From IMG/VR virus record IMGVR_UViG_3300027914_001343, positions 85,167 through 149,166 of that record: a DNA stretch of 64,000 nt, one strand, 5' to 3'. Below the pieces are notes generated by a model. That model was not told the DNA's origin. It saw only the letters and a list, made by a program, of their open reading frames with translations, and searched no databases. Below, piece after piece: positions 1,744-61,979 of the stretch. Numbering within the stretch: position 1 is the first letter of the stretch; the number at the start of each line of letters is the position of its first letter. Position numbers and translations under genes: made by a program. The DNA comes from a virus (Duplodnaviria > Caudoviricetes).

Positions 1744-1775
1744 CATATTGGCCAGGCTTGTGCCTGGCCTTTATG
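1744..1775. terminator. two-sided CATA-hairpin-TATG element
   Basis: CATA tt GGCCAGGC ttgt GCCTGGCC tt TATG between convergent genes. Confidence 0.8.
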
Positions 1776-1779
1776 CTGC

Positions 1780-2352
1780 TTAGCGTTTTCTTTCTGGCGG
1801 AAACTTAACAGCCAGTCGCATCGCACAATTCGCGTCTACGCATTTGAAACAGAAAACAACGCCATCCTTAGTAGAATCATAACTGACTGCGAATGGTTTT
1901 GTATTATAGTCAAGCGAAGACACAAACTTAATTAATTCGTTGACTACCAGCTCGAAGGGTAGTTCACCACCTTCGATTCTGTTAAAGAAAGATTCGTTAT
2001 AAGCCTTTACTTTAAGCGCATCGAGACGCTTAATGAGGTCAGTGTAAGTAATGACATTCGACAAGATGATGCTATCACTAATCTGAGCATCAACCACTGC
2101 TTCTCTTCCGAATGACAAACCGTATTGTTCAACGATGTCACGACGGCTGCCGTGTATCGTATCGCCATCTACGCAGATGTTTAAGCTAGTATTAAGCGCA
2201 TGAATTGCTTTTATCATGTCTCGCAACCTCTTAACCATCTCGAGTGCCCTAAAGTTCCTATATTGATCAACCGTCTCAATTAAGAGCTGTAACTTACCGG
2301 AAGTAAGCTCGGTATCCCTGAAAAATAAACTCATTAAAAACTTCTGCTTCAT
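1780..2352 (-). CDS. hypothetical protein (start uncertain, 2352 or 2397)
   Basis: Long ORF that ends at the convergent hairpin; no motif recognised. Confidence 0.6.
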   Translation of the reverse strand: MKQKFLMSLFFRDTELTSGKLQLLIETVDQYRNFRALEMVKRLRDMIKAIHALNTSLNICVDGDTIHGSRRDIVEQYGLSFGREAVVDAQISDSIILSNVITYTDLIKRLDALKVKAYNESFFNRIEGGELPFELVVNELIKFVSSLDYNTKPFAVSYDSTKDGVVFCFKCVDANCAMRLAVKFPPERKR

Positions 2353-2397
2353 TTGGAAAGTCCGTTGTATGGTTGTTTGTGTTCTGAATACAGACAA

Positions 2398-2844
2398 TCA
2401 CAACAAAGACATAAAAAAGAAAATTTTCTAAAAAATAAAAAAATATTTTTATATCAGTGTTATGATTAAGGAGTATTTTCCTAGTATCTATTAAAGGGGG
2501 CCCCCTCCGGGCCCCCTCCCTAGATAGAGTTCTAGGTTCAGTTCGTCACGCCCCCGCGTTCCTCACAGGTTTTAGTTGCATACGATAAGTATGCTAGTAA
2601 AAAAATATTTTTGAAGTAATGTTTTAGAACGAACTATGGGGCCTTTACGGGCCCCTTATAGTGAGAAGAGTGTATAAAACCTATAAAGTAAGGGAATAAT
2701 AGAGGCAGGCTTTTACGGCCTGCCAATAATCTACTTTATGTAAGAAAAAAATAAAAGAGAAAATATTCCATAGTTTAACGGGACCGGTCGGCGCAGCTGC
2801 CGGGCTGATACTATGAGACTTTGAATAACCGCAAGGAGATCAAC
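2398..2844. other. AT-rich non-coding block with multiple nested hairpins (candidate ori, pac site or ncRNA)
   Basis: No ORF. Hairpins GGGGGCCC/GGGCCCCC, GCATAC/GTATGC, GGGGCC/GGCCCC and GGCAGGC/GCCTGCC with outer complementary arms. Confidence 0.5.
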
Positions 2845-3339
2845 ATGCGTAGACTGTTAAGCCGATCCCTCGAGGATCGCAGTGAAGGCGGTAGTAGCCG
2901 TGTTGCTATCGATGACAAGACAGTGGTGCTGAAAGGCCCGTTGTCCGACGCTTACACAAAAGCACTAGACATTGCTTTTGCTAAGAATGAAGAAGGTGTA
3001 GCAACTGAGAACTTTGATCAACAAGAAGCCGCTCAAGAACTGGCAAAAGTAATCTACGCTACTGCCAATGATGCCGACGCCACCAATGAGATCACAGTGT
3101 TTGCATCTGATACAGAAACACTGTCTCCAGATGACGTTGTTGATATCACAATGGACCTTGTCAACGCTGATAAGACTGATGTTGCTAGCGACTACGTTAT
3201 TATTATTGATGACGTAATTGAAACAGGTGCTTCTGGCGCAACTGGTTCTGTTGGGACCAATGTGGAAAGCAGAAATGTTGCAGCAGTTGAAGCTTTGGCA
3301 AGTAAGTTTAATGCCAAATTTATCCGTCGTTCCAAGTAA
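2845..3339 (+). CDS. putative head/virion protein
   Basis: ATG 2845 after AAGGAG; acidic; SLE and ATE motifs typical of prohead-protease substrates. Confidence 0.6.
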   Translation: MRRLLSRSLEDRSEGGSSRVAIDDKTVVLKGPLSDAYTKALDIAFAKNEEGVATENFDQQEAAQELAKVIYATANDADATNEITVFASDTETLSPDDVVDITMDLVNADKTDVASDYVIIIDDVIETGASGATGSVGTNVESRNVAAVEALASKFNAKFIRRSK

Positions 3340-3345
3340 ACATTT

Positions 3346-3372
3346 TGGCTAGGTAAAGTCCTAGCCATTATG
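3346..3372 (+). terminator. hairpin-TATG element
   Basis: TGGCTAGG taaagt CCTAGCCA t TATG(CC) just after the stop at 3339. Confidence 0.7.
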
Positions 3373-5069: not shown

Positions 5070-5101
5070 CATATCGGCCAGGCGAAAGCCTGGCCTTTAT
5101 G
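5070..5101. terminator. two-sided CATA-hairpin-TATG element
   Basis: CATA tc GGCCAGGC gaaa GCCTGGCC tt TATG. Confidence 0.8.
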
Positions 5102-5103
5102 CC

Positions 5104-7338
5104 TTACCCGTACGTACGACGATCACTAAAGAGACCTTCACTAAACGAAATACGTTCCACTGCATGTCTAGGCGCAGTAAGACTTACTTCGTTATTCCCC
5201 CACTGGCGCTCGTAAGCGTCGTAGTTTCTACCACGACCACGACGTGCCTCAGATGCTTTTCTAATAAGCTCATCGACACTGAACATTTCTCCATCCTCAA
5301 GAATAATTTTCCTTTCAAGAGAACGAAGCTCGTGTTCAATTCGAGCACAGAGGAAAGTATCACGTTCGCCAATCAGTTCCTTCTGAAGATCTTCAATACG
5401 TTCACGAAGATATTTCTGCTCAGCAGCTATTTCAAGTTCTTCGTAACTAAGTTCCTTTTGTGTTCGAATAGCTGAACCAATTTTGGTAATATCAATACCA
5501 TAGAAGGACAGATTCTTACCTTGAGTAAGGAACCAATGTGTAAGCAACCAAGCGATCACCATATCGTCGTGTTCACCAACCTCATGGTCAATACGACCGT
5601 TTCTGATAACAAGGCCAAGGATCTGATCTACAAGTGTCTTATCCTTTACCTTAGTACCAGCACGTTTCATAGCTGCCATCAAAACGCTCGAATACAATTC
5701 GCCGCGACTGTAACTACCAGAACCAGATGTAGCAAAACCAAAAGTCTTCTTGTAACGAACGTAGATGTCTGTAGGACGACGATTCATCGGTTGCTTGATT
5801 TCACGATAACGTTCCGGGAATTCATCGTATTCATTCACAACGCGATTGAACAGACGCTTGAACGGATCAATCCCGTAGCTAGGAAGCATGAGCAAGAGAT
5901 AGTCAAGCAACATACCACCAGTAGAACGACGTTCAATAATGCCAGTTACGTTTTCGAAACGAACAAGTAACGAGCAGACCCATTTAGCGAGCACGATAAG
6001 GTTAGTTTCGTTATACGTACCAGCGCCAATAGTTTCTAGTGTCTCGACATCAGTAATCAGAAGCGAGATATCGTCACCGCCAGACGCTTCACTAGTATCC
6101 ATTGTCATCAAGTATTTACCATTAGCCATCCGTTCTTCAACTTCATCTTCCGGAATATACCAGCGAATAACGTAACCATCAGGTTTGCTGAACTCATTAA
6201 AGAGAATACTCTCTACACTCGCCGCAACCATGTCAGCCATATGTGCAGGAAACGGACTCTTCTCAGTACCGGATGTCCAAATGTTGAAATAATCTCGGTT
6301 AGCGTCCTCACCAGTCTGGAGAGATTCTTCAAGTTTACGAGCAAGCCATTCGTCAGTCTTACCTAGTTGACGATGGTTAAACGTACCGTTAATCATCAGC
6401 TTCTTGGCACGAGATGCACCACGAACACGCTTAGCGAGCTCTTCAGCATTCTTGGAATCAAGAAACGCCTCATCCCAAACAGCAGCATCAGAAACAAGTC
6501 CATAAACGAACTTGCCGTCCTTGTCGTCCTTCTTACCAGCGGTAGTAGTAAGGATAACACCATACGGGGATTTGTTCTTAATAGCTGCTTCAATAGCAGC
6601 ACCAGTAGCCGCCAAAGCAGCAGGAAGAGCAATAGCGATATTTGGCTGGAATGGTGCTTCGTCAATATGCATGATTGGACTAGTCAGACCGCGACCAAGC
6701 AGCAGAGCACGCTTCGGGGACATTTGCGGTACGTGAGTCTTGTACGTGTTCTTGAACGTGTTGACGGTAATTTCTTCACCGTTATTCGCATCATCATGTC
6801 GCCTAAACTGCAAATAGAACGGAAGTTCTTCAGCGATGTCTTTAAGACGCTGGATGTTGGCACGCCGAAGCGTATCGTCCTTAGTCAAAAGGTTGATTTG
6901 TGTGGACTGACAGAGAACATTCATCAGCAACCGCATCAACACGTCAGTACTGAAAGACTTACCAGTCTGACGAGGTTGAATCAGAATAAAGAAAATGTGA
7001 TTAAAGAAAGACCAGTACAGTGCGATGTTGGCACGATTAGCCTCCATCATTACTGGGTCAGTACCAGCAAGTGCCGGCGCTCTAGCAATCTCTCGGAAGA
7101 AATACCAGGGGTTGATTTTGCACTCAACAGAGATGGCAGTGATTTGTTCTTCAGTGAGGTCCGGATCGTAAGGATCTACGCCTTGGAGAGACGGGTTAAT
7201 AAGCGCCAAAAGAAATGCGTGGTTTTTGATACCCATTGACTTGTAAACAGCAGCTAAGCGAACAAAGCTTTTGTTTTTAGTATTGATATCGATTATTGCG
7301 GACGGGTATTTTGCCCAATCCTCTTCGAATAAGATCAT
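5104..7338 (-). CDS. terL: terminase large subunit (phiKZ gp25-like)
   Basis: Walker A QPRQTGKS, Walker B HIDE, nuclease motifs DTSEASGGD and HDDMVIAW; ATG 7338 with GGAGG RBS. Confidence 0.95.
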   Translation of the reverse strand: MILFEEDWAKYPSAIIDINTKNKSFVRLAAVYKSMGIKNHAFLLALINPSLQGVDPYDPDLTEEQITAISVECKINPWYFFREIARAPALAGTDPVMMEANRANIALYWSFFNHIFFILIQPRQTGKSFSTDVLMRLLMNVLCQSTQINLLTKDDTLRRANIQRLKDIAEELPFYLQFRRHDDANNGEEITVNTFKNTYKTHVPQMSPKRALLLGRGLTSPIMHIDEAPFQPNIAIALPAALAATGAAIEAAIKNKSPYGVILTTTAGKKDDKDGKFVYGLVSDAAVWDEAFLDSKNAEELAKRVRGASRAKKLMINGTFNHRQLGKTDEWLARKLEESLQTGEDANRDYFNIWTSGTEKSPFPAHMADMVAASVESILFNEFSKPDGYVIRWYIPEDEVEERMANGKYLMTMDTSEASGGDDISLLITDVETLETIGAGTYNETNLIVLAKWVCSLLVRFENVTGIIERRSTGGMLLDYLLLMLPSYGIDPFKRLFNRVVNEYDEFPERYREIKQPMNRRPTDIYVRYKKTFGFATSGSGSYSRGELYSSVLMAAMKRAGTKVKDKTLVDQILGLVIRNGRIDHEVGEHDDMVIAWLLTHWFLTQGKNLSFYGIDITKIGSAIRTQKELSYEELEIAAEQKYLRERIEDLQKELIGERDTFLCARIEHELRSLERKIILEDGEMFSVDELIRKASEARRGRGRNYDAYERQWGNNEVSLTAPRHAVERISFSEGLFSDRRTYG

Positions 7339-7399: not shown

Positions 7400-7429
7400 C
7401 ATAGTGGCTGGGTTTTACCCCAGCCACTA
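7400..7429 (-). terminator. hairpin-TATG element
   Basis: Minus strand: TAGTGGCTGGG...CCCAGCCAC TATGC after the stop at 7436. Confidence 0.7.
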
Positions 7430-7435: not shown

Positions 7436-9133
7436 TTACAACGGCGGCATTTCGAGAGCCTCCCAAACATTCATACCCGCCACAGAAAGAATCAAATCTG
7501 TTTCGGTAGTACGTTTGAAGAACTTAATGAAAACAGAATCGGTATTAGCCAATGCCACGTTTTCGATGGTCAGATCTTGATTCCACTGACTGATGTGGAA
7601 CTCAAATTCGTTACTGCCAATGATAATAGAAAACATGTTTGGAACAGGTGCTTCTGTTTCATAGTCAGTATCGAAGAGTGGTTTAGTGCGATACATCACT
7701 TTGTCAAGCCATGCCTCAAACACAGTCTCATTTTGACTGATATTGAGATACTTGAGGTTAGCATTAACGAAAGTCATTAATGCAAATGTATCGCGTCCGT
7801 ATTGCGGGTTCTGATTACTTTCGAAGCCAACACCCCAATTACTACCTGACTGATCGTCAGCTGGACGAAGCAACATGATTTCCAGCGTTTGCGTATGAAC
7901 GTACTTCTTGTAAATACCGTTCACGTCATTCAGATCAATAGACACAGACACCTTTTGGTTTGCGCCGTAATTGATAGGATTGAAAGCCGCCGTATTTTCA
8001 TTGAACTTGACATACGGAGTAGCACGATAGAAAACATTACGATCGAGATTAAGCAGGAACCATTCCAGACGATAACCATTCACGGCGTCGATCCAGACCG
8101 GATACCCAAAGAGCTTGACACTGTAAGCGCCATCTGCTTTCTGTGTAATTGCTTGATACGACTTAGTGATGAACTTCTCGTTGGTGACGGTAGCACCATA
8201 GACGATTTCATTATCAGCCAAGTTGTACTTGAGAACAAGCGGCGTCTTCTGACCGACGATAGTGGAAACATAGTTGTCGAGACCAAAGATCTGGAACTTG
8301 CTGCCGTCTACCGGATACCGTTTCTTGGTGCCATCGCTATAATGTACAACGCCATACAGACTGAACGATGATTTCGGAACGTTGATCGGGTACTGAATGA
8401 GTTGCTGGTTCGATTCAGACAGGAAAGGTGTTTCGAGTGTGATGTCCTTGATGTACTTCTCGCTTGCGTCAGCAGCGCGAATAAAGGACGTTTCCTTCAC
8501 AATCACCTGTGTGATGCTTACAGGTGCGCCAGTGTCAGAATAGAAGATAACTTCCAACACTTCGCCATCGACCAAATCCTGCGCGGTATTACAAACCTTG
8601 ACAACCTTCACCAGATCGGCTTCATCAGCAGAAACTTTTTCCAATGGCACGTTCTGACCAATGAGAACACCATTGGAATCATAGAACGCGCTTACAACAG
8701 TCCCAGTGCCGGCGATCGTGCTTTCGCGGAAGATCTTGGCAAACGAACAGAGATTACCAGAAACAGTCAGGCGAGCATCGATAGCGAGTGTATTCGGGAT
8801 AACACTCTTATCGACATAGGCGCGGAAAGTAGTTGCTGGGGTTGCTGTAGCTGGACCAATAAGGCGGTCGTACTTCGACAACGTATCTGTTTTCACAGCA
8901 CCAGTAATTTCTTCGAGTACAGGAATCAAAGTGGTGATGTCAATCGAAGTAACCTTGAACCACTGTTGCGTGTCAGTATCGACCACGTAATCGCGCACCT
9001 TAGGCACGTACTTACCACTACCAATTCCGCCGAGAAAGATCTCGAACATGGCCCAAATGTGCCATACCCCATCGGGTTCATAGTTGGGGACGATACCGTC
9101 GGTCCCCGCTACCAAAGACAGAGTGTCAGCCAT
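7436..9133 (-). CDS. virion structural protein, probably baseplate (gp26-like)
   Basis: 565 aa, beta-rich; synteny between terL and sheath as in phiKZ. Confidence 0.75.
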   Translation of the reverse strand: MADTLSLVAGTDGIVPNYEPDGVWHIWAMFEIFLGGIGSGKYVPKVRDYVVDTDTQQWFKVTSIDITTLIPVLEEITGAVKTDTLSKYDRLIGPATATPATTFRAYVDKSVIPNTLAIDARLTVSGNLCSFAKIFRESTIAGTGTVVSAFYDSNGVLIGQNVPLEKVSADEADLVKVVKVCNTAQDLVDGEVLEVIFYSDTGAPVSITQVIVKETSFIRAADASEKYIKDITLETPFLSESNQQLIQYPINVPKSSFSLYGVVHYSDGTKKRYPVDGSKFQIFGLDNYVSTIVGQKTPLVLKYNLADNEIVYGATVTNEKFITKSYQAITQKADGAYSVKLFGYPVWIDAVNGYRLEWFLLNLDRNVFYRATPYVKFNENTAAFNPINYGANQKVSVSIDLNDVNGIYKKYVHTQTLEIMLLRPADDQSGSNWGVGFESNQNPQYGRDTFALMTFVNANLKYLNISQNETVFEAWLDKVMYRTKPLFDTDYETEAPVPNMFSIIIGSNEFEFHISQWNQDLTIENVALANTDSVFIKFFKRTTETDLILSVAGMNVWEALEMPPL

Positions 9134-11742: not shown

Positions 11743-11773
11743 CATAAATAAGTCCGGACATTACTGTCCGGAC
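11743..11773 (-). terminator. hairpin-TATG element
   Basis: Minus strand: GTCCGGACA gtaa TGTCCGGAC ttatt TATG after the stop at 11785. Confidence 0.6.
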
Positions 11774-11784: not shown

Positions 11785-12717
11785 TCAATTCATGAAACCA
11801 GCGCGGTTATCTTTCAGATCCACGAAATCATGGCATAGATGCACTACCGACGCCGTGAAGGTTTTCTTCAGTTGATCTTGAGAACGCTCAAGAATCCTGG
11901 AAACACCGGAGTTCTTGTAAGTGCGTTCATTGATAGCAGTGAAGATAACAGCAAGCCAGGTCGGCGGATGTTCGATACCGACAGCCAGAATTTCTTGTGC
12001 GTTGTAGCCGTACCAGGTATTTTTCAGAATCGAGAACAAAACACCTTGATTGAAGTTCTCGAGCCGAACAGTCCCGACCACAATAGTTGCTGCTGCGCAG
12101 AAATCAGCAAGCGTGGTCAGAGGAGCTTCGAGTTGATCAACAACAGCATAAACATCTTCGACAGACGAACGCGTAGCTTTTGCTACAGTAGCGGCAATCT
12201 TGTCGCGTTCTTGAGGGCCGAACTTGTTGTCTGCATCGAAAAGCGTGTAGTAGAAAATACCAGCCAGGATGGAGAGGTTTTGTTGTTCGCCAGGATTCAG
12301 TGCGTAACGTGTACGGACATTTTCACTGATCCAGGAAGCAAACGTAGCGACGGCCAGCGGAGAAACATCACGCAGATATTCGACGCGCTCAGTACGCCAG
12401 ATGTATTCGAGTGCCGCGCGCATCCTCAACATATCGCCTTCGATCGTGTTAGAAACGATAATTTCGTTGTTTTGGTTGAGGCGCGTAAAGGGCCGCATAT
12501 CAACAAAAACCTTCAGATTCCCATCTACGACAAAAGAAATCGGATGGAGAAAAGCAGGTACGTTGTTGTTGTCGTTAACGACCCAAAGGACGTTAGCAAA
12601 ACGATCGTCAGGACGGAGTCCGCCACGCACCATCGCTTCTTCGAGCGCATGTGTAATTTTGCCAATAACGAAACCAGTACACGCTGTAGTTTCGTATGCG
12701 GATGTAAACACGGACAT
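11785..12717 (-). CDS. virion structural protein (gp28-like)
   Basis: 310 aa, 'EHPPTWLA' block; divergent from the sheath gene. Confidence 0.75.
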   Translation of the reverse strand: MSVFTSAYETTACTGFVIGKITHALEEAMVRGGLRPDDRFANVLWVVNDNNNVPAFLHPISFVVDGNLKVFVDMRPFTRLNQNNEIIVSNTIEGDMLRMRAALEYIWRTERVEYLRDVSPLAVATFASWISENVRTRYALNPGEQQNLSILAGIFYYTLFDADNKFGPQERDKIAATVAKATRSSVEDVYAVVDQLEAPLTTLADFCAAATIVVGTVRLENFNQGVLFSILKNTWYGYNAQEILAVGIEHPPTWLAVIFTAINERTYKNSGVSRILERSQDQLKKTFTASVVHLCHDFVDLKDNRAGFMN

Positions 12718-12978: not shown

Positions 12979-15063
12979 ATGAATGCAATCGTAAACGGTG
13001 CACCGATGACCGTGTTCCAGGGGACGAATGACAAGAGCAACCGGGCCGAGGTAGCTGAAGCCGAGGTTCTCCCGTCGCATCTCCCTTGGGTGTATCTTTA
13101 CACCCAAGATGGTCCTACCACTCCGCAACTGGTTGCTGGTAGTTCCCGGAACATCATGTACGGTGCCGACTCTTTCGATCCCCGTAAGGCCTACGCTACC
13201 CACGCTACGGTCCTCTCGAACGTTTTCCAGGCTGCGGGCAATGCCCAGATCATCCAGCGCCTGATTCCGGCAGACGCTGCCCCGCGTGCAAACCTGCGTC
13301 TGGCGCTGGATGTTCTTAGCACCAAACTGCCCGTCTACGAGCGTAATACCGATGGCTCGATCAAGACGGATGCAGCTGGTAAGCCGGTAGCCACCTCCAC
13401 CACCGTCGACGGTTACCTTGTCAAGTGGGTGAAAACCCACATTGCACTCGGCTCCGAAGGCGAAGATAAGTTTGGCCAAGGCACTGAAGTCGCTGGCGAT
13501 CAGACTGACACTGATACCGGCACGCAATCGCGCCGTATCCCTATCCTTGATCTCGAAGTCTCGCACATCGGTAGCAAGGGTAACAACCTCGGCGTTCGTC
13601 TGTTTGCGCCGACAGCTAAGTCGTCCGTGCCTGTTTCTGCCAAGACCATTTCCAAGGAAAAGGTTTATCCGTTCCGTGTCGCATTCGTTTCGCGCACTGA
13701 TGAACTCTCGACGGCCAAAGTCATTGAGACTCAGTCCGGCGAACAAACCGTGAACGTTACCTGGCAAGACATCTTCGACCGTAGCAGCGAGCAAGAACTT
13801 GGCATTACTGACAACCTGCTCAGCAAGTACCAGAACCTGGCTCCGAATGATGGTTCCATGCCGGTGTTCGGTCCGTTCGGCCGCATCAGCGTTTACAGCG
13901 AAAATATCGCTGCGCTGCAGACTCTGTTCTATGCGGCAGAAAAAGCCTTCATCGATGCGTTCTCTGATTTCACTGGCGCTTCCGGTGAAGAAGGTTTGTT
14001 CAACTTCATCAGCGGTGTTTCTTCGAACAACGTTCCTTACACCTCGTTCCGTTTGACAACCGGTGGTTCGGAAACCGTTAAACCTACTGAAGCTACCACT
14101 CTGTGGGCTACCGGTGGTTCTGACGGCACGATGTCGAACGCTGCTTTCGATCTGTTGGTGCGTGACGCTGTCGCTGATTTCGCCAATGCGAACAACAGTG
14201 TCCAAGACACTGCGTACTTCCCGACTTCCTGCCTGTATGACTCCGGCTTCGGCCTGGATGTCAAGAAAGCGCTCCCGCAGTTTATTTCGCTGCGCAAGGA
14301 CACTTTCGTGGTGCTTGCCACGCACGCAGTCGGTGAAAGCCTGACGGCTACTGAAGAATCGTCTATCGCTGTGGCACTGAAGACGGCTCTGCAGATGTAT
14401 CCGGAATCCGATTACTTCGGCACCGAAACGATGCGCGGTGTTGTTGTTGCTCGTTCCGGCAAGCTGTTGAACTCGACCTTCAAGAAACGTCTGCCTCTTT
14501 CGATCGAACTGGCCAACAAGGCTGCCAAGTACATGGGTGCTGGTAACGGCATCTGGAACAGCGTCTACTCGTTCGATGAATACCCGGCCAATGAAGTCGA
14601 GCTCTTCGGCGACATCAATTGCGCATGGACTCCCGCTACCGCCCGTAACAAGGACTGGGACAACGGGATGATCTGGGTTGAGAACTATGGGCGCAACAGC
14701 GTCTACTTCCCGGCTATCCGCACCGTTTACGGCGATGACACCAGCGTTCTGACTTCGTTCCTGACCATGGCAGCAATCGTGGAACTGGAAAAGGTCGGCG
14801 ATCGCGCTCGTCGTCGTTTCAGCGGTAACTCCAAGCTCACTACTGCTCAGCTGATCGAGCGTGTGAACCAGTTTGTGGAAGAAAACACTGTGGGTCGTTT
14901 TGATGAGCGCTTCACGATCGTGCCGGAAACTTACATCACTTCTGGTGATGAAGCTCGCGGTTACTCGTGGACGCTGAAGATCAAGATCTACGCTGCGAAC
15001 ATGAAGACTGTTCAGACCCTCGTCATCGAAGCCTATCGCGCTGACGACCTGGCTGCGGCATAA
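12979..15063 (+). CDS. tail sheath protein (gp29-like)
   Basis: 694 aa, N-terminal NGAP..QGTNDKS, YDSGF motif, strong codon bias of an abundant protein; followed by the tube gene. Confidence 0.9.
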   Translation: MNAIVNGAPMTVFQGTNDKSNRAEVAEAEVLPSHLPWVYLYTQDGPTTPQLVAGSSRNIMYGADSFDPRKAYATHATVLSNVFQAAGNAQIIQRLIPADAAPRANLRLALDVLSTKLPVYERNTDGSIKTDAAGKPVATSTTVDGYLVKWVKTHIALGSEGEDKFGQGTEVAGDQTDTDTGTQSRRIPILDLEVSHIGSKGNNLGVRLFAPTAKSSVPVSAKTISKEKVYPFRVAFVSRTDELSTAKVIETQSGEQTVNVTWQDIFDRSSEQELGITDNLLSKYQNLAPNDGSMPVFGPFGRISVYSENIAALQTLFYAAEKAFIDAFSDFTGASGEEGLFNFISGVSSNNVPYTSFRLTTGGSETVKPTEATTLWATGGSDGTMSNAAFDLLVRDAVADFANANNSVQDTAYFPTSCLYDSGFGLDVKKALPQFISLRKDTFVVLATHAVGESLTATEESSIAVALKTALQMYPESDYFGTETMRGVVVARSGKLLNSTFKKRLPLSIELANKAAKYMGAGNGIWNSVYSFDEYPANEVELFGDINCAWTPATARNKDWDNGMIWVENYGRNSVYFPAIRTVYGDDTSVLTSFLTMAAIVELEKVGDRARRRFSGNSKLTTAQLIERVNQFVEENTVGRFDERFTIVPETYITSGDEARGYSWTLKIKIYAANMKTVQTLVIEAYRADDLAAA

Positions 15064-15117
15064 AACACGGAGGGTATTTGATTATACCCTCCATCTATTC
15101 ATCGAATGGAGATCGAC

Positions 15118-15990
15118 ATGGCTCGAATCACTAATGCTCTCATGGGCGACAATGCGTACGGGAAAGGCACTCAAGGTGCTGTCCTGGACCTGCGCTATGG
15201 CGGGCAAATGGGCTTCGCTCCCAACTTGAGCGAATGGGTGAGCAACCAGCAGTACGTTAGCCGTAACGTCATCTGTCTTCTGGTTGAAGCACCTACTGGT
15301 TTCCAGCTGTTGCAAAATCCGGATTACTGGGTCGGCACGCTGCGTTCTCTCGTGGAACTGCATGCCATCAGCATTACTGGCCTCAACGCAACTCTGGAAG
15401 TTGAATACGCCGAAACTCCGGTTGGTGGCGGCGGCGAAATGCATGAAGACGTTACTGACGTCAAGCGCACTCGCACGCAAGTTACCTTCAGTTGGAACGA
15501 AAAGTATGGCATGCCCGTACAACGTTTCCTGTCCGGCTGGATTCGTTATCTGATCATGGACCCGGATGCTAAGGTTGCTCTGATCAACACTCTCAGCAGC
15601 GATGCTTCCAAGCGCGTTACTGACATGCTGTCTGATCGTTCGGCTGCCTCGATGATTTTCATCGAACCCGATCCGACCCATACGAAGGTAATGAAAGCAT
15701 GGCTCGGCACCAACATGATGCCGCGCACTTCTGGCGAAATCGAAGCGCAGCGTGACCTCACTGCTGCCGGCGAAGCCAAGAAGTACGACGTGCAATTTAC
15801 CGGTATCTTCCAATACGGTCTTGGTGTGGATACGTTGGCTCAGAAACTTCTGAACGCTATCAACATCACTGGTGCCAATCCGTACACCCGCGCAGCTTTC
15901 ATTAGCGACATCGCGGCTGACGTGAAGAAGCAAGACCAAGGCAGCTATGGTTCTAACGTGGTTGCAACTGGCGGTAGCAAGACAGCCTAA
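15118..15990 (+). CDS. tail tube protein (gp30-like)
   Basis: ~290 aa directly after sheath; 'DLRYGGQMG', 'WNEKYGMP' and 'FIEPDPT' blocks; GGAG RBS. Confidence 0.88.
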   Translation: MARITNALMGDNAYGKGTQGAVLDLRYGGQMGFAPNLSEWVSNQQYVSRNVICLLVEAPTGFQLLQNPDYWVGTLRSLVELHAISITGLNATLEVEYAETPVGGGGEMHEDVTDVKRTRTQVTFSWNEKYGMPVQRFLSGWIRYLIMDPDAKVALINTLSSDASKRVTDMLSDRSAASMIFIEPDPTHTKVMKAWLGTNMMPRTSGEIEAQRDLTAAGEAKKYDVQFTGIFQYGLGVDTLAQKLLNAINITGANPYTRAAFISDIAADVKKQDQGSYGSNVVATGGSKTA

Positions 15991-15998: not shown

Positions 15999-16033
15999 CA
16001 TATTCGGGGACCCGCAATGGTCCCCGATTTATG
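15999..16033. terminator. two-sided CATA-hairpin-TATG element
   Basis: CATA tt CGGGGACC cgcaat GGTCCCCG att TATG. Confidence 0.8.
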
Positions 16034-17870: not shown

Positions 17871-17897
17871 CATAAAAGCCGGGCCATCAGGCCCGGC
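17871..17897 (-). terminator. hairpin-TATG element
   Basis: Minus strand: GCCGGGCC tgat GGCCCGGC ttt TATGC, overlapping the stop at 17887. Confidence 0.65.
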
Positions 17898-18501: not shown

Positions 18502-18547
18502 AAAAAAAAAAATAAAGCAGGGGGAAAATCCCCCTGCTCATTATGCC
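18502..18547 (-). terminator. intrinsic terminator with U-tract (GGCATA on its 5' side)
   Basis: Minus strand: GGCATA atg AGCAGGGGG atttt CCCCCTGCT tta + T11. Confidence 0.75.
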
Positions 18548-21122: not shown

Positions 21123-21186
21123 TTCTTTAACCCTCTTGTTTAGTAAATGAAGGAACATTAAGAATCTACAGTTCCAACCCAAGTTT

Positions 21187-21218: not shown

Positions 21219-21246
21219 CATATAGGCTAGGCCGAAGCCTAGCCTA
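21219..21246 (-). terminator. hairpin-TATG element
   Basis: Minus strand: TAGGCTAGGC ttcg GCCTAGCCTA TATGCC (cUUCGg loop) after the protease stop. Confidence 0.75.
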
Positions 21247-24607: not shown

Positions 24608-24627
24608 TTCCTGTCTCCGGTTTGACA

Positions 24628-24661
24628 AATAAATAAACTAGGGGAGCTTTGGCTCCCCTAG
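24628..24661 (-). terminator. intrinsic terminator
   Basis: Minus strand: CTAGGGGAGC caaa GCTCCCCTAG followed by TTTATTTATTT. Confidence 0.7.
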
Positions 24662-37998: not shown

Positions 37999-38031
37999 CC
38001 TGGGGAGGGAAACTTCCCCAGGTTTTATTTT
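37999..38031 (+). terminator. intrinsic terminator
   Basis: CCTGGGGAG ggaaa CTTCCCCAGG followed by TTTTATTTT. Confidence 0.65.
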
Positions 38032-38053
38032 GCTTTATTTTGGAGTAAAAGAA

Positions 38054-40176: not shown

Positions 40177-40211
40177 CATAGAGGGCGGGAATTTCCCGCC
40201 CTCGTTTTATG
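40177..40211. terminator. two-sided CATA-hairpin-TATG element
   Basis: CATA GAGGGCGGGA att TCCCGCCCTC gttt TATG. Confidence 0.8.
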
Positions 40212-41304: not shown

Positions 41305-41321
41305 TATGTAAGTTCCAATGC

Positions 41322-41359
41322 AAAAAAAAAAAGAGGGAGCCCTAAGGCCCCTCTTTTTT
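41322..41359 (-). terminator. intrinsic terminator ending the early island
   Basis: A11-GAGGGAGCCCTAAGGCCCCTC-T6; imperfect stem with a long U-tract on the minus strand. Confidence 0.7.
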
Positions 41360-43051: not shown

Positions 43052-43087
43052 TTTGTGACAGGCATAGATTAGTCTGTGCCCACGTAT

Positions 43088-43110
43088 GTAATATAGGTCT
43101 GAAACTTTTT
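43088..43110 (-). promoter_or_regulatory. phiKZ-type early promoter
   Basis: Minus strand AAAAAGTTTCAGACCTATATTAC; exact TATATTAC. Confidence 0.78.
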
Positions 43111-43561: not shown

Positions 43562-43595
43562 TCATACTGGCCAGGCTTCCGCCTGGCCAGTATGA
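43562..43595. terminator. two-sided CATA-hairpin-TATG element
   Basis: Perfect inverted repeat TCATACTGGCCAGGC ttcc GCCTGGCCAGTATGA. Confidence 0.82.
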
Positions 43596-45526: not shown

Positions 45527-45550
45527 CATAAGTCCGCAACTAGTGCGGAC
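45527..45550 (-). terminator. hairpin-TATG element
   Basis: Minus strand: GTCCGCA ctagt TGCGGAC t TATGTC. Confidence 0.6.
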
Positions 45551-45561: not shown

Positions 45562-45900
45562 TTATTCAGCCGGAGTTTCAGCATGCTCCATGATCTTCGG
45601 AATCACGCCGTCTTCGAGCAGACGATACCAGTCATGGATGGTGCCTTGTTCAACCAGACAGAAACGAGCGTCCTTGGTATCGGAAGGCATACCAGCAATA
45701 ACAAGACGCAATTGGCGGTTCACGAGGAAACGCTGGATGTCCTGATTGGTGTCTTCTTTCAGGGCATCTTCGTTGAGCTTGGAATACTTGCTTTCACGCC
45801 AGAACGAAGGATTCGGATGACCTGCATTCTTCAGTGCCTCATCGACGAGGTCAGCAACACATTCGTTATCAGCAATGACACGTTGTACTTTTTGATTCAT
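45562..45900 (-). CDS. hypothetical protein
   Basis: 112 aa with RBS. Confidence 0.7.
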   Translation of the reverse strand: MNQKVQRVIADNECVADLVDEALKNAGHPNPSFWRESKYSKLNEDALKEDTNQDIQRFLVNRQLRLVIAGMPSDTKDARFCLVEQGTIHDWYRLLEDGVIPKIMEHAETPAE

Positions 45901-46009: not shown

Positions 46010-46036
46010 CATAGTGGGAGGTCCGAAGACCTCCCA
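46010..46036 (-). terminator. hairpin-TATG element
   Basis: Minus strand: TGGGAGGTC ttcg GACCTCCCA c TATGC. Confidence 0.72.
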
Positions 46037-46040: not shown

Positions 46041-46286
46041 TTACGCTTTCTTGTCAGCAGCTTTTGTGGGAGAAGAGGTTGCCTTAGCTTGTGTTTCATA
46101 CTTTTCAAGCTTCTCCTGCAAGCGCCTGATTTCGTCTTGCAGCTGAGACAACTGAATTTCAGCAATTCGCAACATCCCGCTTTGCTGAGCGACAGTATCG
46201 AGCAGACGACCATTTTCCTGACGATACGACGCCATCATTGCCCTGGAAGCTTCTTCTTCGATATTGAACTGTTTCTGGTCTTGCAT
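46041..46286 (-). CDS. small coiled-coil protein
   Basis: 81 aa, heptad pattern, AGGGG RBS. Confidence 0.65.
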   Translation of the reverse strand: MQDQKQFNIEEEASRAMMASYRQENGRLLDTVAQQSGMLRIAEIQLSQLQDEIRRLQEKLEKYETQAKATSSPTKAADKKA

Positions 46287-48813: not shown

Positions 48814-48883
48814 AGCGGTCTCCTAATAAAAAATTAAACCAGTCAGATAATTCGTCTTCCTATTAATAAAAAATACTTTACGG

Positions 48884-48917
48884 CAAAAATGGGAGGCCGA
48901 AGCCTCCCATTTTTTTG
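48884..48917 (-). terminator. intrinsic terminator (possibly bidirectional)
   Basis: AAAAATGGGAGGC cgaa GCCTCCCATTTTT. Confidence 0.8.
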
Positions 48918-48936
48918 TTGTGGCGTAAACCGAAGT

Positions 48937-49863
48937 TTACAGAGCTTGCCACCAAGCAACCAGGTCTTCGTTGGTGTCGCCCAGGTTGAGGTATTGCTGC
49001 ATTGCTGCAACAGTACCACCGATGAGCATCCACTGACCCCAGACCGGGCCGAGGGCCGATTGCTGACGCATCACGATACCGGCCGGCGTAGCGATCAGTT
49101 GGTAGAAGAGGCCGGTGTCAGCGTACGGCAGAACCAGGATCGAGCCAGTGGTGGCCGAAATACCAGTCGTACCGAAGGTAACGTTGGCATTCAGGAAATG
49201 CACGCCCTTGGTCAGCAGAGCATCCAGAGCAGCAGAAGAATCAACACTACCGTTGACCAGCAGTGCCTTGGACAGGTCGGCGCTGTTGTTACCAATCAAA
49301 GTCAGCAGGTTGTCGAGCTGAGTCTGGTCACCAGCCAGTTCATCTTGCAGTTCTTTCAGCGTGTCGTAAGCGGCCGAAGCGCCACCCAGGATTTCATCCT
49401 TGGTAGCTTGAGCAGTTGCTTGGATCACAGACTGGGTCTTGCTCGAAGACCAGACGCTGGTGGTGGAGATTTCGGTATCTTTGATCAGGCCGTCTGCGTA
49501 ATCTTGAGCGGCTTCAGCGGCAGCCATAGCTGCATCAATGCCTGCTTGCAGAGTGGTGGCCTTGCCATCAACATACGTGCGCAGTGCGGTATCAGCGGCC
49601 GACAGCAAACCTTCGATCTTGGTAGACGAGTAGGTGGTTTCCAGACTTGCAGCTGCGTCGTCGATGACGTCGGTCGAAGCAGCATCAATTGCTTCTTGCT
49701 TGGCAGCGGCGATCAGGTCAGCGATTTTGGTGCTCGAATACGTAGTCGTAGCCGAAACAGATGCGTCATCGATCGTAGCCTTAGCTTGGATAAGAGTGGC
49801 CAGATTGCGGATACTTGTTTTGATATCCGACAGAATGACCTTAAGTTGGTCTTGATGAAACAT
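48937..49863 (-). CDS. fibre-like virion protein with internal repeats
   Basis: ATG 49863; three I-D/K-D...Y/W-SS-x-K repeats; 'ILGGASAAYDTLKEL' tail-fibre motif. Confidence 0.7.
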   Translation of the reverse strand: MFHQDQLKVILSDIKTSIRNLATLIQAKATIDDASVSATTTYSSTKIADLIAAAKQEAIDAASTDVIDDAAASLETTYSSTKIEGLLSAADTALRTYVDGKATTLQAGIDAAMAAAEAAQDYADGLIKDTEISTTSVWSSSKTQSVIQATAQATKDEILGGASAAYDTLKELQDELAGDQTQLDNLLTLIGNNSADLSKALLVNGSVDSSAALDALLTKGVHFLNANVTFGTTGISATTGSILVLPYADTGLFYQLIATPAGIVMRQQSALGPVWGQWMLIGGTVAAMQQYLNLGDTNEDLVAWWQAL

Positions 49864-49962
49864 GGTTATCCCCTTGTAGGAGTTAATTATGGAAAGAGCA
49901 GCACTTTCACAGGGACTATGCTCATCTGATATGGTAAAAAAAAATACTGTAAACACTTACGG

Positions 49963-49994
49963 CATAAATGGGTGGTCTAAACCACCCATTTATG
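49963..49994. terminator. two-sided CATA-hairpin-TATG element
   Basis: Perfect CATAAATGGGTGGT ctaa ACCACCCATTTATG. Confidence 0.78.
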
Positions 49995-50003: not shown

Positions 50004-50225
50004 TTACCAAGCTTTAGAGAACCTACCGGACTCAACGAACGACTTTGGCAACATTCGATTCTTGCCGTTACGTTCCAGACGATAGTAGGACTTATAGGGA
50101 TCAACACCAAAAGTGATTATTGGGTCTTTACTCATAAAGTCGATTTCGCCAAGATACTTAACTACAAAAACTTCGCCAGACGCCAAATGCGCGATCTTTT
50201 CACCATCTTGAAATGACCGTCGCAT
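50004..50225 (-). CDS. small hypothetical protein
   Basis: 73 aa starting 2 nt after the uvsX stop. Confidence 0.55.
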   Translation of the reverse strand: MRRSFQDGEKIAHLASGEVFVVKYLGEIDFMSKDPIITFGVDPYKSYYRLERNGKNRMLPKSFVESGRFSKAW

Positions 50226-51745: not shown

Positions 51746-52564
51746 ATGGACCCGATTAACGAGCTCAGACTTCATAACGAGATCGTGGCTTTGGAGGCTT
51801 TCGCTCTCCCGAATATTCGTGATCTCGTTAGCCGTATCCTGCCGGGTATTGTTAACAACTTCAACAGTTTTGTTGGTGGGTTATCTGCTTCTGATACCGG
51901 CATTCCTCTTTCCAGTAAGAACCGCGACTTCTTGAAGTTTATCGATAAGCATCGCTACGTCGATCTCGCGCCGATTACGTCTTATGTGCCGGAAGGCCTG
52001 AACGTTCCGTACCTCGATTTCGCTGTGCATCTGAATGGTGCTGTCGATTACGTGCTTCCTCTTCCTGAAACCCTCAACAAGTTCTCTACGTTCTTGGCTG
52101 TTCTGCTCACCAATCGCGATGAGCAAATGAGCACTAAGGACAAGCACGCTGAGTACCAGAAATACGAACAAGACCGCCTGCTTCTTATCAAGGACATTGG
52201 TCGTTGTTTCAAGCCAGGCAGTACGGTAGCAGAAGTTTCTTATGGTGCCGTGGTAAAGCGCAATAGTGACTGGGAGCATGTGCTTGGTTACACCGAGTAC
52301 TTTGCAGCCAAGATCAATGAAATTAACCGTAAACAATTGAATGACAAGGTCAAGGAAATCGCTGGTTACCTTGATAAACTTCTCGAACAGCATAAGAAGG
52401 GTAATCTTTCGAATGTTACTCCGGAAGTCTTTACTGAGCTTTCTTACGGTACGTACCAAATGGCGCGGGCGTTGGAATTCTTCTCTGTTGTTTACTTCCG
52501 CGTTCTCGGTTTTAACGAGAGCGTGAACAAGACCATCGCAAACGTGATGACTGTAATGGAATAA
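51746..52564 (+). CDS. head/virion protein (gp153-like)
   Basis: 272 aa with N-terminal ALE protease motif; divergent from uvsX. Confidence 0.7.
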   Translation: MDPINELRLHNEIVALEAFALPNIRDLVSRILPGIVNNFNSFVGGLSASDTGIPLSSKNRDFLKFIDKHRYVDLAPITSYVPEGLNVPYLDFAVHLNGAVDYVLPLPETLNKFSTFLAVLLTNRDEQMSTKDKHAEYQKYEQDRLLLIKDIGRCFKPGSTVAEVSYGAVVKRNSDWEHVLGYTEYFAAKINEINRKQLNDKVKEIAGYLDKLLEQHKKGNLSNVTPEVFTELSYGTYQMARALEFFSVVYFRVLGFNESVNKTIANVMTVME

Positions 52565-52572: not shown

Positions 52573-52605
52573 CATAATTGGCCAGGCAAGAGCCTGGCCA
52601 ATATG
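52573..52605. terminator. two-sided CATA-hairpin-TATG element
   Basis: CATA a TTGGCCAGGC aaga GCCTGGCCAA TATG. Confidence 0.8.
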
Positions 52606-52613: not shown

Positions 52614-53027
52614 TCAAATCCCGAAAACATCTTGACGATGATGGATAAGCTTAGAAAGATCAGCCCGCAAGGAAGTCTCGTCGTACCGCATCCAGCGTGG
52701 GGCGCAATCAAGGATGCGCTGACTAAAAGACTCAACAGCCTTCTCGGGAAATCTTTCTTTTCTAACAAGGCACACAGCGATCTGGTTAAGTGATTGATCC
52801 TGCCAAATCACTTTATTGAGCATCATCGGAACTTGAGCCGCACCAGGCGTGGAAGATAGCCCAAGTAATTCATTCAGTTTCCGAATTGTCTCAACGTCCA
52901 GCTCGCGTGTTTCTTTTATCCTGGTAGACAAAGAAACCATGAACAGCAGTCTCTTCGTGTGCACCGGCAATACATTTTCAAGGATTCGTGAACCGAGATC
53001 CTTAAGACGTTTAAAAAGTGTGCTCAT
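52614..53027 (-). CDS. hypothetical protein
   Basis: 137 aa, GAGG RBS. Confidence 0.7.
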   Translation of the reverse strand: MSTLFKRLKDLGSRILENVLPVHTKRLLFMVSLSTRIKETRELDVETIRKLNELLGLSSTPGAAQVPMMLNKVIWQDQSLNQIAVCLVRKERFPEKAVESFSQRILDCAPRWMRYDETSLRADLSKLIHHRQDVFGI

Positions 53028-56841: not shown

Positions 56842-57459
56842 ATGTCCACTAGCATCATTCCGGATATTTCAGCCAGCGGTTTGTGGGTTCTTAAGGAACC
56901 TTTCAATACACTTCTGCTGACAGAAACTCCTTATACATGCGTTGCCGTCAGAAAGACCTCTGACCTTCTTAAGATCGGTGAAGACCCAAAGAAGTTTTAT
57001 ACTGATAAGGGACTTGCGGATACTGTTTACGCTGAAGATCTCAAGGTAGATGTCTGTATCATCAGCCTTCAGTGTAATAGTACTGGCGATATTGTTTATG
57101 TACCATCGACCTATATCCTCAGTTATCCTAAAGGCAGTGGTGTTCCGTACAGCATGATGGGTCTGGCTATTTCTCTTGGCGCAATGCCTGAATCTACTGA
57201 CCTTACTTATCTGAAACAACGGATGAAAGATATCGTCACTGAAACTGTCGGTGTCGAAGGCACTGTCCATCAGCTCTCAATCAGTACTATGCAATTGATG
57301 GACCAAGATTCACACAAGCGTCTTGAAGTTGCAAGGATGGCAAAGATTACGATTAATAAGACTGATCGTGAGCTCTATTTGGAAGAGCAAGCTAAGAACG
57401 AGGCTCTTACCACAAGAGTGGCTGAGTTGGAAGCATACATCCTTAGTTTGAATCCATAA
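56842..57459 (+). CDS. conserved phiKZ-like protein (gp161-like)
   Basis: 205 aa, AGGAGG RBS, C-terminal coiled coil. Confidence 0.68.
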   Translation: MSTSIIPDISASGLWVLKEPFNTLLLTETPYTCVAVRKTSDLLKIGEDPKKFYTDKGLADTVYAEDLKVDVCIISLQCNSTGDIVYVPSTYILSYPKGSGVPYSMMGLAISLGAMPESTDLTYLKQRMKDIVTETVGVEGTVHQLSISTMQLMDQDSHKRLEVARMAKITINKTDRELYLEEQAKNEALTTRVAELEAYILSLNP

Positions 57460-57461: not shown

Positions 57462-57495
57462 CATAAATACCGGGAGCCAGAGCTCCCGGTATATG
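57462..57495. terminator. two-sided CATA-hairpin-TATG element
   Basis: CATA aa TACCGGGAGC caga GCTCCCGGTA TATG. Confidence 0.8.
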
Positions 57496-57503: not shown

Positions 57504-58544
57504 TTACGCGTAACGAATGTTGTTCGCAAAGATTTGCTGGGCTTTAAGAACGGTGGCGATTTCAGCAGTTCCAGCATTAAGACTCGGTGTCGTAAGACTC
57601 GTCTCTGCTGTAACAGCTCCTTCCATCGTAACTGTGTTCTTGACCTTAAGCGGTGATTCAAAACTACACTCACCCCCACCTCCTCCACCGCCACCACCTG
57701 TTTGTGACAAAGCCCCAGCCAAACCAATGTTACCTTTGTGTGTGGTTTGTGAGGTCATATCGGTAATCGGCGAAACAATAGTAGTTGAAGTACTTGCTGT
57801 GTACTCCATCGTATCTGTCTTTACTTGAATATCCGAAGCTTCGACAGTAAGGTTGGTAGTTTTGATTTTACCGCTATCACCAGTGAACAACTCAAACACT
57901 GATTTGGTAATATCGAAGTAACTACCGTCTTTGTTTTCGTAGCGCATAGTTCTCGCAGCGCTGTCAAACAAAAAGAAATTGCTATCAGTATCCCGAATAC
58001 TGAAGTTGCCAAGATCAAGATCAAGCAGAATGTCATAGCCAAAAGGTTCGCCATTGGCTTGAGACGTATGCAGTCTGATCTGTTTCGTGTGAGACGATAC
58101 CTCGAATACATAGCAGTTATCCTCAGTGATGTTGACGTCTTCTTTTGATGTAGCACTAAAAGCAAAAACAACTGTTTCAAGTTTACGGAACCGCAGGTCA
58201 TTGCGGAGTGTGTTCCAATAGATGCGTTCTGCATCGCCAAATTTATAAAGCACTACTTGTTCACCGCGCCGCACGTTAGGTGGCGTTTGACGATTTGGTT
58301 GCCCAATAGGTAACCATGTAGCAGTTACTGAATTACTGCTATTAAGTTTTACATCTGTTTTCTTACCACTACTGTCTGCTGCAGAAACAGTTTCTTCGAA
58401 AATATGTTCAGAGATCTCACCGTCCACCATTGAAAGTTCTTCAAGTGGTGTTACTTCAATTTCAAGCGAGCTAAGGAGCTTGTTGGAGGCAACTAGCCCG
58501 TACGAATAGACGTGTAACTCACTTACTTTATACTTGGGTTTCAT
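57504..58544 (-). CDS. baseplate central spike (gpV/gp5-like; gp164-like)
   Basis: OB-fold motif 'ATWLP...TPPNVRRGEQV' followed by beta-helix-like repeats. Confidence 0.75.
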   Translation of the reverse strand: MKPKYKVSELHVYSYGLVASNKLLSSLEIEVTPLEELSMVDGEISEHIFEETVSAADSSGKKTDVKLNSSNSVTATWLPIGQPNRQTPPNVRRGEQVVLYKFGDAERIYWNTLRNDLRFRKLETVVFAFSATSKEDVNITEDNCYVFEVSSHTKQIRLHTSQANGEPFGYDILLDLDLGNFSIRDTDSNFFLFDSAARTMRYENKDGSYFDITKSVFELFTGDSGKIKTTNLTVEASDIQVKTDTMEYTASTSTTIVSPITDMTSQTTHKGNIGLAGALSQTGGGGGGGGGECSFESPLKVKNTVTMEGAVTAETSLTTPSLNAGTAEIATVLKAQQIFANNIRYA

Positions 58545-61099: not shown

Positions 61100-61111
61100 G
61101 AGTTTGAAAAA

Positions 61112-61933
61112 ATGCAAGACACCAATTTGCAAGCTTTGAAAGAACTGGAAGACGTAACTGCTCGTCTGAATCAACATAGCGTCCTGCTTCGGCAGGATTT
61201 GCAGCACATTGTTGCTGCTCTCAAGGATATCGAGTTCTGCCAGAACTTCTTTACAGGCCTGGTAAAGCAAGCGCGTTCCAACGTTGCCGCTAATACTGAA
61301 GCCGCCAACCGCGAAGTACTTGCGGAAGAAAAGCCCGACGAACCGATTAAGGCTGAAGAAGTAAAGGAACCAGCTAGCGGCGAAACGCCAGTGATTGCGC
61401 ATACCGACGAAGCGGCCGTCTATCATCACCCGGTGGAAGAAGCCAGTCCTGAAAAAATGCCGACTTCTGAAGTCGAAGAAGTGGCTGCTATTCTGGAAGA
61501 AGCAATCGATGTTCCGGAAGAAGAAATCGGACCGATTCAGAAAGCGATCTATAGCAACTACTTCAACTCACTCGTAAAAGCTGGCAAGGGTGAAGTGATC
61601 ACTGACCAGAAAGGTAAGTGGAAACTTAAAGCGCCTTTCAAGACTTACACTCAAGATGTTCGTGGTGTTGAAAAGAAAACGCTGTCTGGCTGGCCTTCGG
61701 GCTTCTATCGCAATTCCAACAACAACAGCAAGATGCTGATGTTCCGTCTCGACAATCTCGCAGTTCTCTTCGAAGATATCGAGAACATCAATATTGACAA
61801 TATCAGCATCTGTCATCTTACGTCGGATGTTGTCAGTCCGTGGACGCCGGCTTCCAAGATCAGCGCAACGAACCAAGAACTTTTGGTTGCGGCCATCGGA
61901 ACTTGGCAGATGGCGAACTGCATTGAAGTCTAA
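61112..61933 (+). CDS. hypothetical protein
   Basis: 273 aa: coiled coil, acidic linker, globular C-terminus; AGGAG RBS. Confidence 0.75.
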   Translation: MQDTNLQALKELEDVTARLNQHSVLLRQDLQHIVAALKDIEFCQNFFTGLVKQARSNVAANTEAANREVLAEEKPDEPIKAEEVKEPASGETPVIAHTDEAAVYHHPVEEASPEKMPTSEVEEVAAILEEAIDVPEEEIGPIQKAIYSNYFNSLVKAGKGEVITDQKGKWKLKAPFKTYTQDVRGVEKKTLSGWPSGFYRNSNNNSKMLMFRLDNLAVLFEDIENINIDNISICHLTSDVVSPWTPASKISATNQELLVAAIGTWQMANCIEV

Positions 61934-61947
61934 GTAGTAAAATGCGG

Positions 61948-61979
61948 CATATCGGCCAGGCTTTCGCCTGGCCTTTATG
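61948..61979. terminator. two-sided CATA-hairpin-TATG element
   Basis: CATA tc GGCCAGGC tttc GCCTGGCC tt TATG. Confidence 0.8.

Follow-up and report, generated by a model that had tools for sequence, protein, structure and literature searches.

Hairpin-TATG elements at the gene ends of an uncultivated phiKZ-like jumbo phage resemble the intrinsic terminators mapped in phiKZ and 201phi2-1

Transcript ends of the jumbo phages phiKZ and 201phi2-1 have been mapped by ONT-cappable-seq. In phiKZ, this analysis revealed 133 termination regions. A stem-loop with an adjoining TTAT region is common to 61 of them (consensus BCCYCCCCHWWDGGGRRGGBYTTATKYYGT), and six bidirectional regions are located between convergent genes (Putzeys et al. 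2024, PMC10914365). Likewise, the 3′-ends mapped in 201phi2-1 yielded a main terminator motif A that 'strongly resembles' the phiKZ motif, 15 bidirectional terminators, and combined motifs (A/B) that give longer stems (PMC11512511). Moreover, the late promoter of the phiKZ non-virion RNA polymerase (nvRNAP) is the tetranucleotide 5′-TATG-3′, which provides the G at position +1 and is needed for initiation (Yakunina et al. 2015, PMC4666361). Here, we analyzed a stretch of 64,000 nucleotides of the virus record IMGVR_UViG_3300027914_001343 (positions 85,167 to 149,166; hereafter the window), in which GC-rich hairpins adjoined by TATG are found at the ends of genes. An initial annotation of this DNA, which had rightly named TATG as the phiKZ late promoter element, had proposed that hairpin and TATG form a directional signal, possibly an undescribed terminator that acts independently of a U-tract and serves the phage polymerase.

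With a probability of roughly 85%, these elements are intrinsic transcription terminators of a phiKZ-like jumbo phage, which consist of a GC-rich RNA hairpin and the short tail (T)TTATG-[C/A]-Y-G-T. They represent the phage's own version of the terminator design mapped in phiKZ and 201phi2-1. Since their sequence equals the motif with mapped 3′-ends in both phages, the proposal of a directional signal at gene ends was borne out, whereas the element itself has already been published and is not new. When the tails of the contig and of phiKZ were aligned with one script, the same columns emerged, namely TAT[G/T]-Y-Y-G-T, and the contig combines the GC stem-loop, the YTTATKYYGT-type tail and the placement at gene ends with the split polymerase of this phage group.

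The window constitutes the right-hand 64 kb of one virus contig of 149,166 bp, which is estimated to be 56% complete and has a GC content of ~45%. No near-identical DNA was found among sequenced phages, and the contig was placed by protein similarity alone. Judged by the large polymerase subunit, the Burkholderia phage FLC9 is its nearest cultured relative (50% protein identity, tblastn), ahead of jumbo phages of Ralstonia and Xanthomonas, and every relative obtained by tblastn is a jumbo phage. Matches to the PHROG database indicate subunits of a phiKZ-type split RNA polymerase at positions 24665-29116 and 29119-30738, and further a large terminase, a tail sheath, a tail fibre of 2396 amino acids and virion proteins. 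Because of these polymerase subunits, structural genes and protein relatives, we assign the contig to an uncultivated phiKZ-like (Chimalliviridae-type) jumbo phage.

The window contains exactly eight convergent gene junctions, which we re-derived from the gene calls, and each of the gaps of 32-50 nucleotides is filled by a single CATA-[GC stem-loop]-TATG element spanning 32-35 nucleotides, with folding energies between -19 and -28 kcal/mol on both strands (Table 1). Intergenic hairpins in general have stems of 7-16 bp and energies of -11 to -28 kcal/mol. Across the full contig, each of the 14 convergent junctions harbors one hairpin, 11 of them flanked by CATA and TATG and three with TATG on a single side, so that on 25 of the 28 terminating sides TATG faces the 3′-end of the opposing gene. 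In contrast to these two-sided elements, at seven co-directional sites TATG is present solely on the transcribed strand and 3′ of the hairpin. All 18 coordinates that had been named beforehand hold the content described, including the exceptions, i.e. the two-sided element at 49963 between minus-strand genes and the sites 15057 and 18547 with TATG on the non-transcribed side. The antisense tail of the former reversed site (15059-15092) may catch antisense transcription that runs past the convergent terminator at 15999. A plus-strand open reading frame (48889-49929) that would have made 49963 a ninth convergent junction was rejected, as only the minus-strand frame 48937-49956 has a PHROG match.

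The tail consensus, (T)(T)TATG-[C/A]-Y-G-[T/C], is longer than bare TATG, and all 52 sites have a pyrimidine at position +5 (the fifth after the T). Thus, the flanks are conserved as first noticed, even beyond the tetranucleotide, but the claim that the stems differ is only partly true, since one and the same 8-bp stem, GGCCAGGC/GCCTGGCC, recurs in six terminators with differing loops (positions 1750, 5076, 43568, 52579 and 61954, and contig position 78236). The notion of a missing U-tract applies likewise only in part. It holds mainly for the weaker side of two-sided sites, where truly U-poor tails with one or two U ahead of the G occur (AAUAUG, GAUAUG, AGUAUG and CUAUG, encoded as AATATG, GATATG, AGTATG and CTATG), but the dominant tail is UUUAU(G), and at least five hairpins in the window carry plain T-rich tails (Table 1). 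A canonical U-tract of ~7-9 nucleotides, mostly U, is not the rule: among the 64 strong terminating sides, a T-run of at least five is found on 13 and a TATG tail on 42. As a separate observation, GCCAGG or CCTGG is found in many further stems; CCWGG is not depleted genome-wide (236 observed versus 215 expected), but the intergenic 7% of the contig accounts for 35 of these 236 copies.

In the window we scanned for perfect hairpins with a stem of at least 7 bp and used first-order Markov simulations as controls. This revealed 37 hairpins, nine of which are two-sided and nine one-sided with regard to TATG, as compared to 8.1, 0.017 and 0.33, respectively, in the simulations. TATG is present on 24 of 32 terminating sides but on only 3 of 20 other sides in the window (p=4e-5), and on 44 of 67 versus 8 of 43 on the contig (p=1.7e-6), where hairpins inside genes lack it entirely (0 of 44 sides). 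In line with this, TATG is the commonest tetramer in the 15 nucleotides at the 3′-edge of hairpins between genes, where it occurs on 52 of 110 sides (~3 expected). The bare pattern CATA-N22-30-TATG, on the other hand, is not significantly over-represented (10 found, 6.6 expected). The signal therefore resides in the association with hairpins and gene ends, and not in the bare pattern.

The element is widespread among relatives. We retrieved 52 metagenomic loci via the terminase, whose terminases are 31-64% identical and whose GC content ranges from 26 to 59%. TATG was observed on 140 of 358 terminating sides versus 41 of 238 others (p=8e-9), and is often the top tetramer regardless of GC content. 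In many of these relatives GCATA-[stem]-TATGCYG is located directly 3′ of the orthologous terminase gene with unrelated stems of 8-17 bp, which is the clearest demonstration of conserved flanks and freely co-varying stems. Some lineages lack TATG tails (L037/L052, L026, L045-47 and L051); these were examined for co-variation of the tail with the promoter motif, and no clear alternative tail was seen in the 22-kb loci. Two other explanations were considered. The palindromes could be mobile repeats or operators for a dimeric DNA-binding protein with GCATA…TATGC half-sites, as suggested by the identical 8-bp stem at six sites and by the inverted repeat formed by the flanks. However, the elements occur only at gene ends and never inside genes, the one-sided forms track the direction of transcription, the spacing of the half-sites varies with the stem length (8-17 bp in relatives), and the stems co-vary completely with pairing kept, which renders this explanation highly improbable. 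Alternatively, transcription could read through, an endonuclease could cut at single-stranded UAUG, and the hairpin could protect the resulting 3′-end from exonucleases. A stable 3′-hairpin beside an A/U-rich single-stranded site is indeed the classic layout of a processed end, and the mapping of 3′-ends in relatives cannot by itself separate termination from processing. Nevertheless, in the perfect palindromes at 43563 and 49963 UAUG would be base-paired, and terminators of the same family block expression of a downstream reporter in vivo. Moreover, the motif is kept across Pseudomonas, Burkholderia and Ralstonia hosts and across the same range of GC content, so that phage machinery fits better than a host RNase. 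RNA processing or stabilization is thus a quite improbable explanation.

We further applied one pipeline to five genomes, namely the contig, phiKZ, 201phi2-1, FLC9 and RSF1, and pooled the results by the Cochran-Mantel-Haenszel (CMH) procedure. The polarity of TATG, which had been put forward for testing beyond the window, holds for the pooled genomes (CMH odds ratio 2.8, p=4e-11) and for strong hairpins of the contig (42 of 64 versus 8 of 38 sides), and is also strong in FLC9, RSF1 and 201phi2-1. Several points speak against our interpretation. In phiKZ the polarity is not significant (52 of 121 versus 30 of 90, p=0.2), because many co-directional junctions carry a T-rich tail (TTTATTT) in sense and a complete TATGYYG in antisense orientation (e.g. 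record positions 3735, 199169, 214096 and 233278). Hence, the statement that TATG is always 3′ on the transcribed strand is no family-wide rule. On the contig, about one fifth of the non-terminating sides (8 of 43) likewise carry TATG. Furthermore, a palindrome contributes two sides that are not independent of each other, and the p-values for convergent junctions are therefore inflated. The gene layout derives from our own heuristic gene calls, which were checked with PHROGs and are uncurated. Finally, while the anatomy, polarity, statistics and conservation of the elements were observed directly, that transcripts end at these sites is suggested by homology to the motifs mapped in relatives.

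TATG is probably a promoter element in this phage too, because bare intergenic copies lacking a hairpin face gene starts (41 versus 20) and cluster 19-40 nucleotides upstream of start codons. Inside the coding regions of the contig, TATG is rarer than synonymous-codon shuffles predict, with ratios of 0.70 and 0.67 for the two strands, as is TATA (0.63), while the other one-letter neighbors of TATG are at ~1.0. This avoidance likewise suggests a promoter role; in phiKZ the depletion is weaker (0.90 and 0.93). Between -50 and -12 upstream of genes TATG is weakly enriched (25 of 83 genes, rank 11 among tetramers). We therefore considered whether the hairpin-adjacent TATG is itself a late promoter with G as +1, at which transcription restarts after termination, as had been suggested initially. 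At co-directional junctions the G lies 15-139 (mostly 23-110) nucleotides upstream of the next start codon and thus would leave a plausible 5′-untranslated region, and both the requirement of TATG with G as +1 in phiKZ and the bare copies facing gene starts are compatible with the idea. In contrast, TATG tails are found on 60-89% of the terminating sides at convergent junctions but on 22-47% at co-directional ones, a difference seen in each of the five genomes (pooled CMH odds ratio of 6.1; p=3e-19, which is optimistic given the non-independent palindrome sides). This enrichment, where no gene follows and where a promoter would give rise to antisense transcripts of the opposing gene, argues against TATG as the promoter of the next gene. 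In addition, several co-directional junctions contain a second, bare TATG 24-49 nucleotides upstream of the start codon and past the hairpin-TATG, others an early-type promoter past the hairpin-TATG. The known late promoters of phiKZ have the same tetranucleotide, but need no hairpin and lack the conserved YYGT, as exemplified by P119L, which has neither a GC hairpin nor YYGT after TATG. A late promoter would be expected upstream of the gene that it transcribes, but the hairpin-linked TATG of the contig is concentrated where none follows. Termination followed by re-initiation is thus unlikely, and the hairpin-adjacent TATG is part of the stop signal.

The best supported mechanism is ordinary intrinsic termination, in which the hairpin acts together with a weak U/A hybrid of short length and a step from a pyrimidine to G. 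The hairpin would form behind the polymerase while the weak U/A-rich hybrid (UUUAU) occupies the active center. The invariant pyrimidine and the subsequent G, 8-9 nucleotides past the stem, would lie at the usual release distance, and this would fit a pause with a pyrimidine at -1 and G at +1. At convergent genes one palindromic hairpin would serve both strands, each with its own tail; this need of each strand for a tail would account for the CATA…TATG symmetry, and at co-directional ends the tail would be kept solely on the transcribed strand.

As to the polymerase involved, eight 201phi2-1 terminators, including those with multiple motifs, stopped transcription from a host-polymerase promoter in a reporter trap in Pseudomonas chlororaphis (PMC11512511). 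Consequently, the design does not need the phage enzyme, and a specificity of the signal for the phage polymerase is not supported. One could still envisage that an elongating phage polymerase pauses at the tail, upon which the hairpin releases the transcript without a long U-tract, in a manner specific to this enzyme. TATG is better conserved than U-richness, being kept on U-poor sides and across GC contents of 26-59%, it is avoided in genes, and U-rich tails are enriched at the first terminator past early-type promoters in the five genomes. However, terminators of the same family stop the host polymerase, the phiKZ consensus tolerates T for G (TTATK), and the need to avoid spurious promoters explains the scarcity of TATG in genes equally well. 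We therefore regard such a mechanism as conceivable but not probable.

In its specific form, nvRNAP would use the non-template TATG both to start and to stop: the promoter pocket of its beta-like subunit would capture TATG, the enzyme would pause, and the hairpin would terminate transcription without a U-tract. [quoted passage not shown] No match to GP123 was found on the 56%-complete contig. In the literature searched we found no in vitro test of nvRNAP termination, and a link between the terminator tail and the promoter tetranucleotide did not turn up. A possible analogy is offered by known non-template motifs. The motif of Bacillus subtilis NusG is TTNTTT. Considering the role of NusG in termination (PMC8060035) and that of non-template oligo-dT in Pol III termination (bioRxiv 10.1101/2022.02.28.482286), a short non-template sequence read by the elongation complex may similarly aid a weak terminator here, with the difference that the reader of TATG would be a core subunit and not an accessory factor.

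An early-type AT-rich promoter, ATATTTCAGACCTATATCACA, is present at 21186-21206 (-) with a second copy at 43087-43107 (-), and is homologous to phiKZ early promoters (…ATTTAAacagTATATTAC). On the contig the motif lies 47-87 nucleotides upstream of gene starts, 13 of 18 regular-expression matches being intergenic, and its core TATATTAC shows a strong strand bias in 201phi2-1, FLC9 and RSF1; the motif probably marks units of the virion polymerase, i.e. early genes. In all five genomes, the first strong terminator past such promoters is enriched for U-rich over TATG tails (CMH odds ratio 3.3, p=5e-4; without the contig 2.7, p=0.009), an exploratory association that is confounded because early genes lie in clusters, and further by local base composition and by the 'first hairpin' rule. 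This enrichment fits, on an exploratory level, U-rich tails for units of the virion polymerase and TATG tails for those of the non-virion polymerase. If TATG served to start and to stop, the genome would use two kinds of terminators: units of the non-virion enzyme would end at TATG tails, and early units of the virion enzyme at U-rich ones. Weighing against a stop signal specific to the phage enzyme, a TATG tail is found at the end of 16 of the 44 early units that could be classified.

Taken together, the enrichment of TATG tails at convergent versus co-directional junctions and the (exploratory) occurrence of U-rich tails past early-type promoters are new here across the five genomes. Together with the avoidance of TATG in genes, they bear on the question of how non-canonical phage polymerases stop. 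Moreover, the element provides a reliable mark of the ends of transcription units and of gene orientation in uncultivated jumbo phages, most genes of which have no known function.

Table 1. Hairpins at gene ends in the window, with tails given on the strand indicated.
Feature	Position	Strand	Genes	Stem, tail and remarks
Two-sided terminator	1744..1775		convergent 933-1736 (+) / 1780-2217 (-)	stem GGCCAGGC/GCCTGGCC; tails TTTATGCTG (+), AATATGACG (-); -21.8 / -19.3 kcal/mol
Two-sided terminator	5070..5101		small + open reading frame / large terminase gene 5104-7338 (-)	stem as at 1744
Two-sided terminator	15999..16033		convergent, 3′ of virion structural gene 15118-15990 (+)	
Two-sided terminator	40177..40211		convergent 38054-40174 (+) / 40207-41304 (-)	
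Two-sided terminator	43563..43594		convergent	perfect 14-bp palindrome extending through CATA/TATG; -27.6 / -28.5 kcal/mol
Two-sided terminator	52573..52605		convergent 51746-52564 (+) / 52614-53027 (-)	
Two-sided terminator	57462..57495		convergent 56842-57459 (+) / 57504-58544 (-)	
Two-sided terminator	61948..61979		convergent 61112-61933 (+) / 61983-63209 (-)	stem as at 1744
Two-sided terminator	49963..49994		between minus-strand genes 50004-50225 and 48937-49956	exception to one-sided rule
One-sided terminator	3346..3372	+	3′ of 2845-3339 (+)	hairpin then TTATGCCG
One-sided terminator	7400..7429	-	3′ of 7436-9133 (-)	tail TATGCTG; separate bare TATG at 7377, 36 nucleotides upstream of terminase start
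One-sided terminator	11743..11773	-	3′ of 11785-12717 (-)	tail TTATTTATG
One-sided terminator	17871..17897	-	3′ of 17887-18234 (-)	tail TTTTATGCT
One-sided terminator	21219..21246	-	3′ of 21252-22013 (-)	tail TATATGCCC; early-type promoter next at 21186-21206
One-sided terminator	45527..45550	-	3′ of 45562-45900 (-)	tail TTATGTCC
One-sided terminator	46010..46036	-	3′ of 46041-46286 (-)	tail CTATGCTG
Reversed-polarity hairpin	15059..15092	-	adjoins end of tail sheath gene 12979-15063 (+)	full tail GTGTTTTATGCCG on antisense strand only
Canonical T-run terminator	18505..18545	-	3′ of 18557-19465	tail TTTATTTTTTT; TATGCC on opposite strand (reversed TATG polarity)
U-rich-tail terminator	24626..24661	-	3′ of virion RNA polymerase subunit gene 24665-29116 (-)	tail GTTTATTTATTT
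U-rich-tail terminator	37999..38033	+	3′ of 2396-aa tail fibre gene	tail GTTTTATTTTG
Canonical hairpin, A-run and T-run flanks	41316..41359			first terminator downstream of early-type promoter 43087-43107
Canonical two-sided hairpin, A-run and T-run	48879..48922			AAAAATGGGAGGC…GCCTCCCATTTTT

Two further features of the window were observed. The 627 nucleotides between the divergent genes at 2218-2844 contain no convincing open reading frame and harbor GC hairpins at 2495-2517 and 2704-2724 without TATG tails; scans of the 64-kb window for Rfam families and tRNAs gave no match, either here or elsewhere. In the gene encoding the tail fibre, an identical 19-nucleotide palindrome with identical flanks occurs at 37299-37317 and 37341-37359, 42 nucleotides apart (CGCAGCTG-cgg-CAGCTGCG), and this pair is an in-frame tandem duplication.

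Among known systems, the promoters of the N4 virion RNA polymerase are also hairpins, which are conserved in sequence and loop and lie upstream of the start site, ahead of early genes. In the contig, by contrast, stems and loops are unrelated among sites and relatives, and the sites are located at gene ends. Bacterial intrinsic (Rho-independent) terminators are more similar in that a GC hairpin is directly followed by a U/A-rich stretch; a minority of the sites of the contig have a fully canonical T-run, and the 201phi2-1 terminators of this family stop the host polymerase in vivo. They differ in that the contig has a short tail of 2-4 U in which one A and one G are fixed, i.e. a motif rather than a composition, and in that many sides are essentially devoid of a U-tract. 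As compared to phiKZ and 201phi2-1, whose motifs have mapped transcript ends, the elements described here are predicted from sequence. Differences to phiKZ concern the stems, which are CCYCCCC/GGGRRGG there and of the GCCAGG type in the contig, the preference of the contig for G over T at the K position (41 versus 17), and the stricter polarity of TATG (p=1e-5, as compared to p=0.2 in phiKZ). However, the common denominator of all three phages is a GC stem-loop followed by (Y)TTAT-K-Y-Y-G-T at gene ends, with bidirectional copies between convergent genes, in the context of a transcription system with two polymerases.

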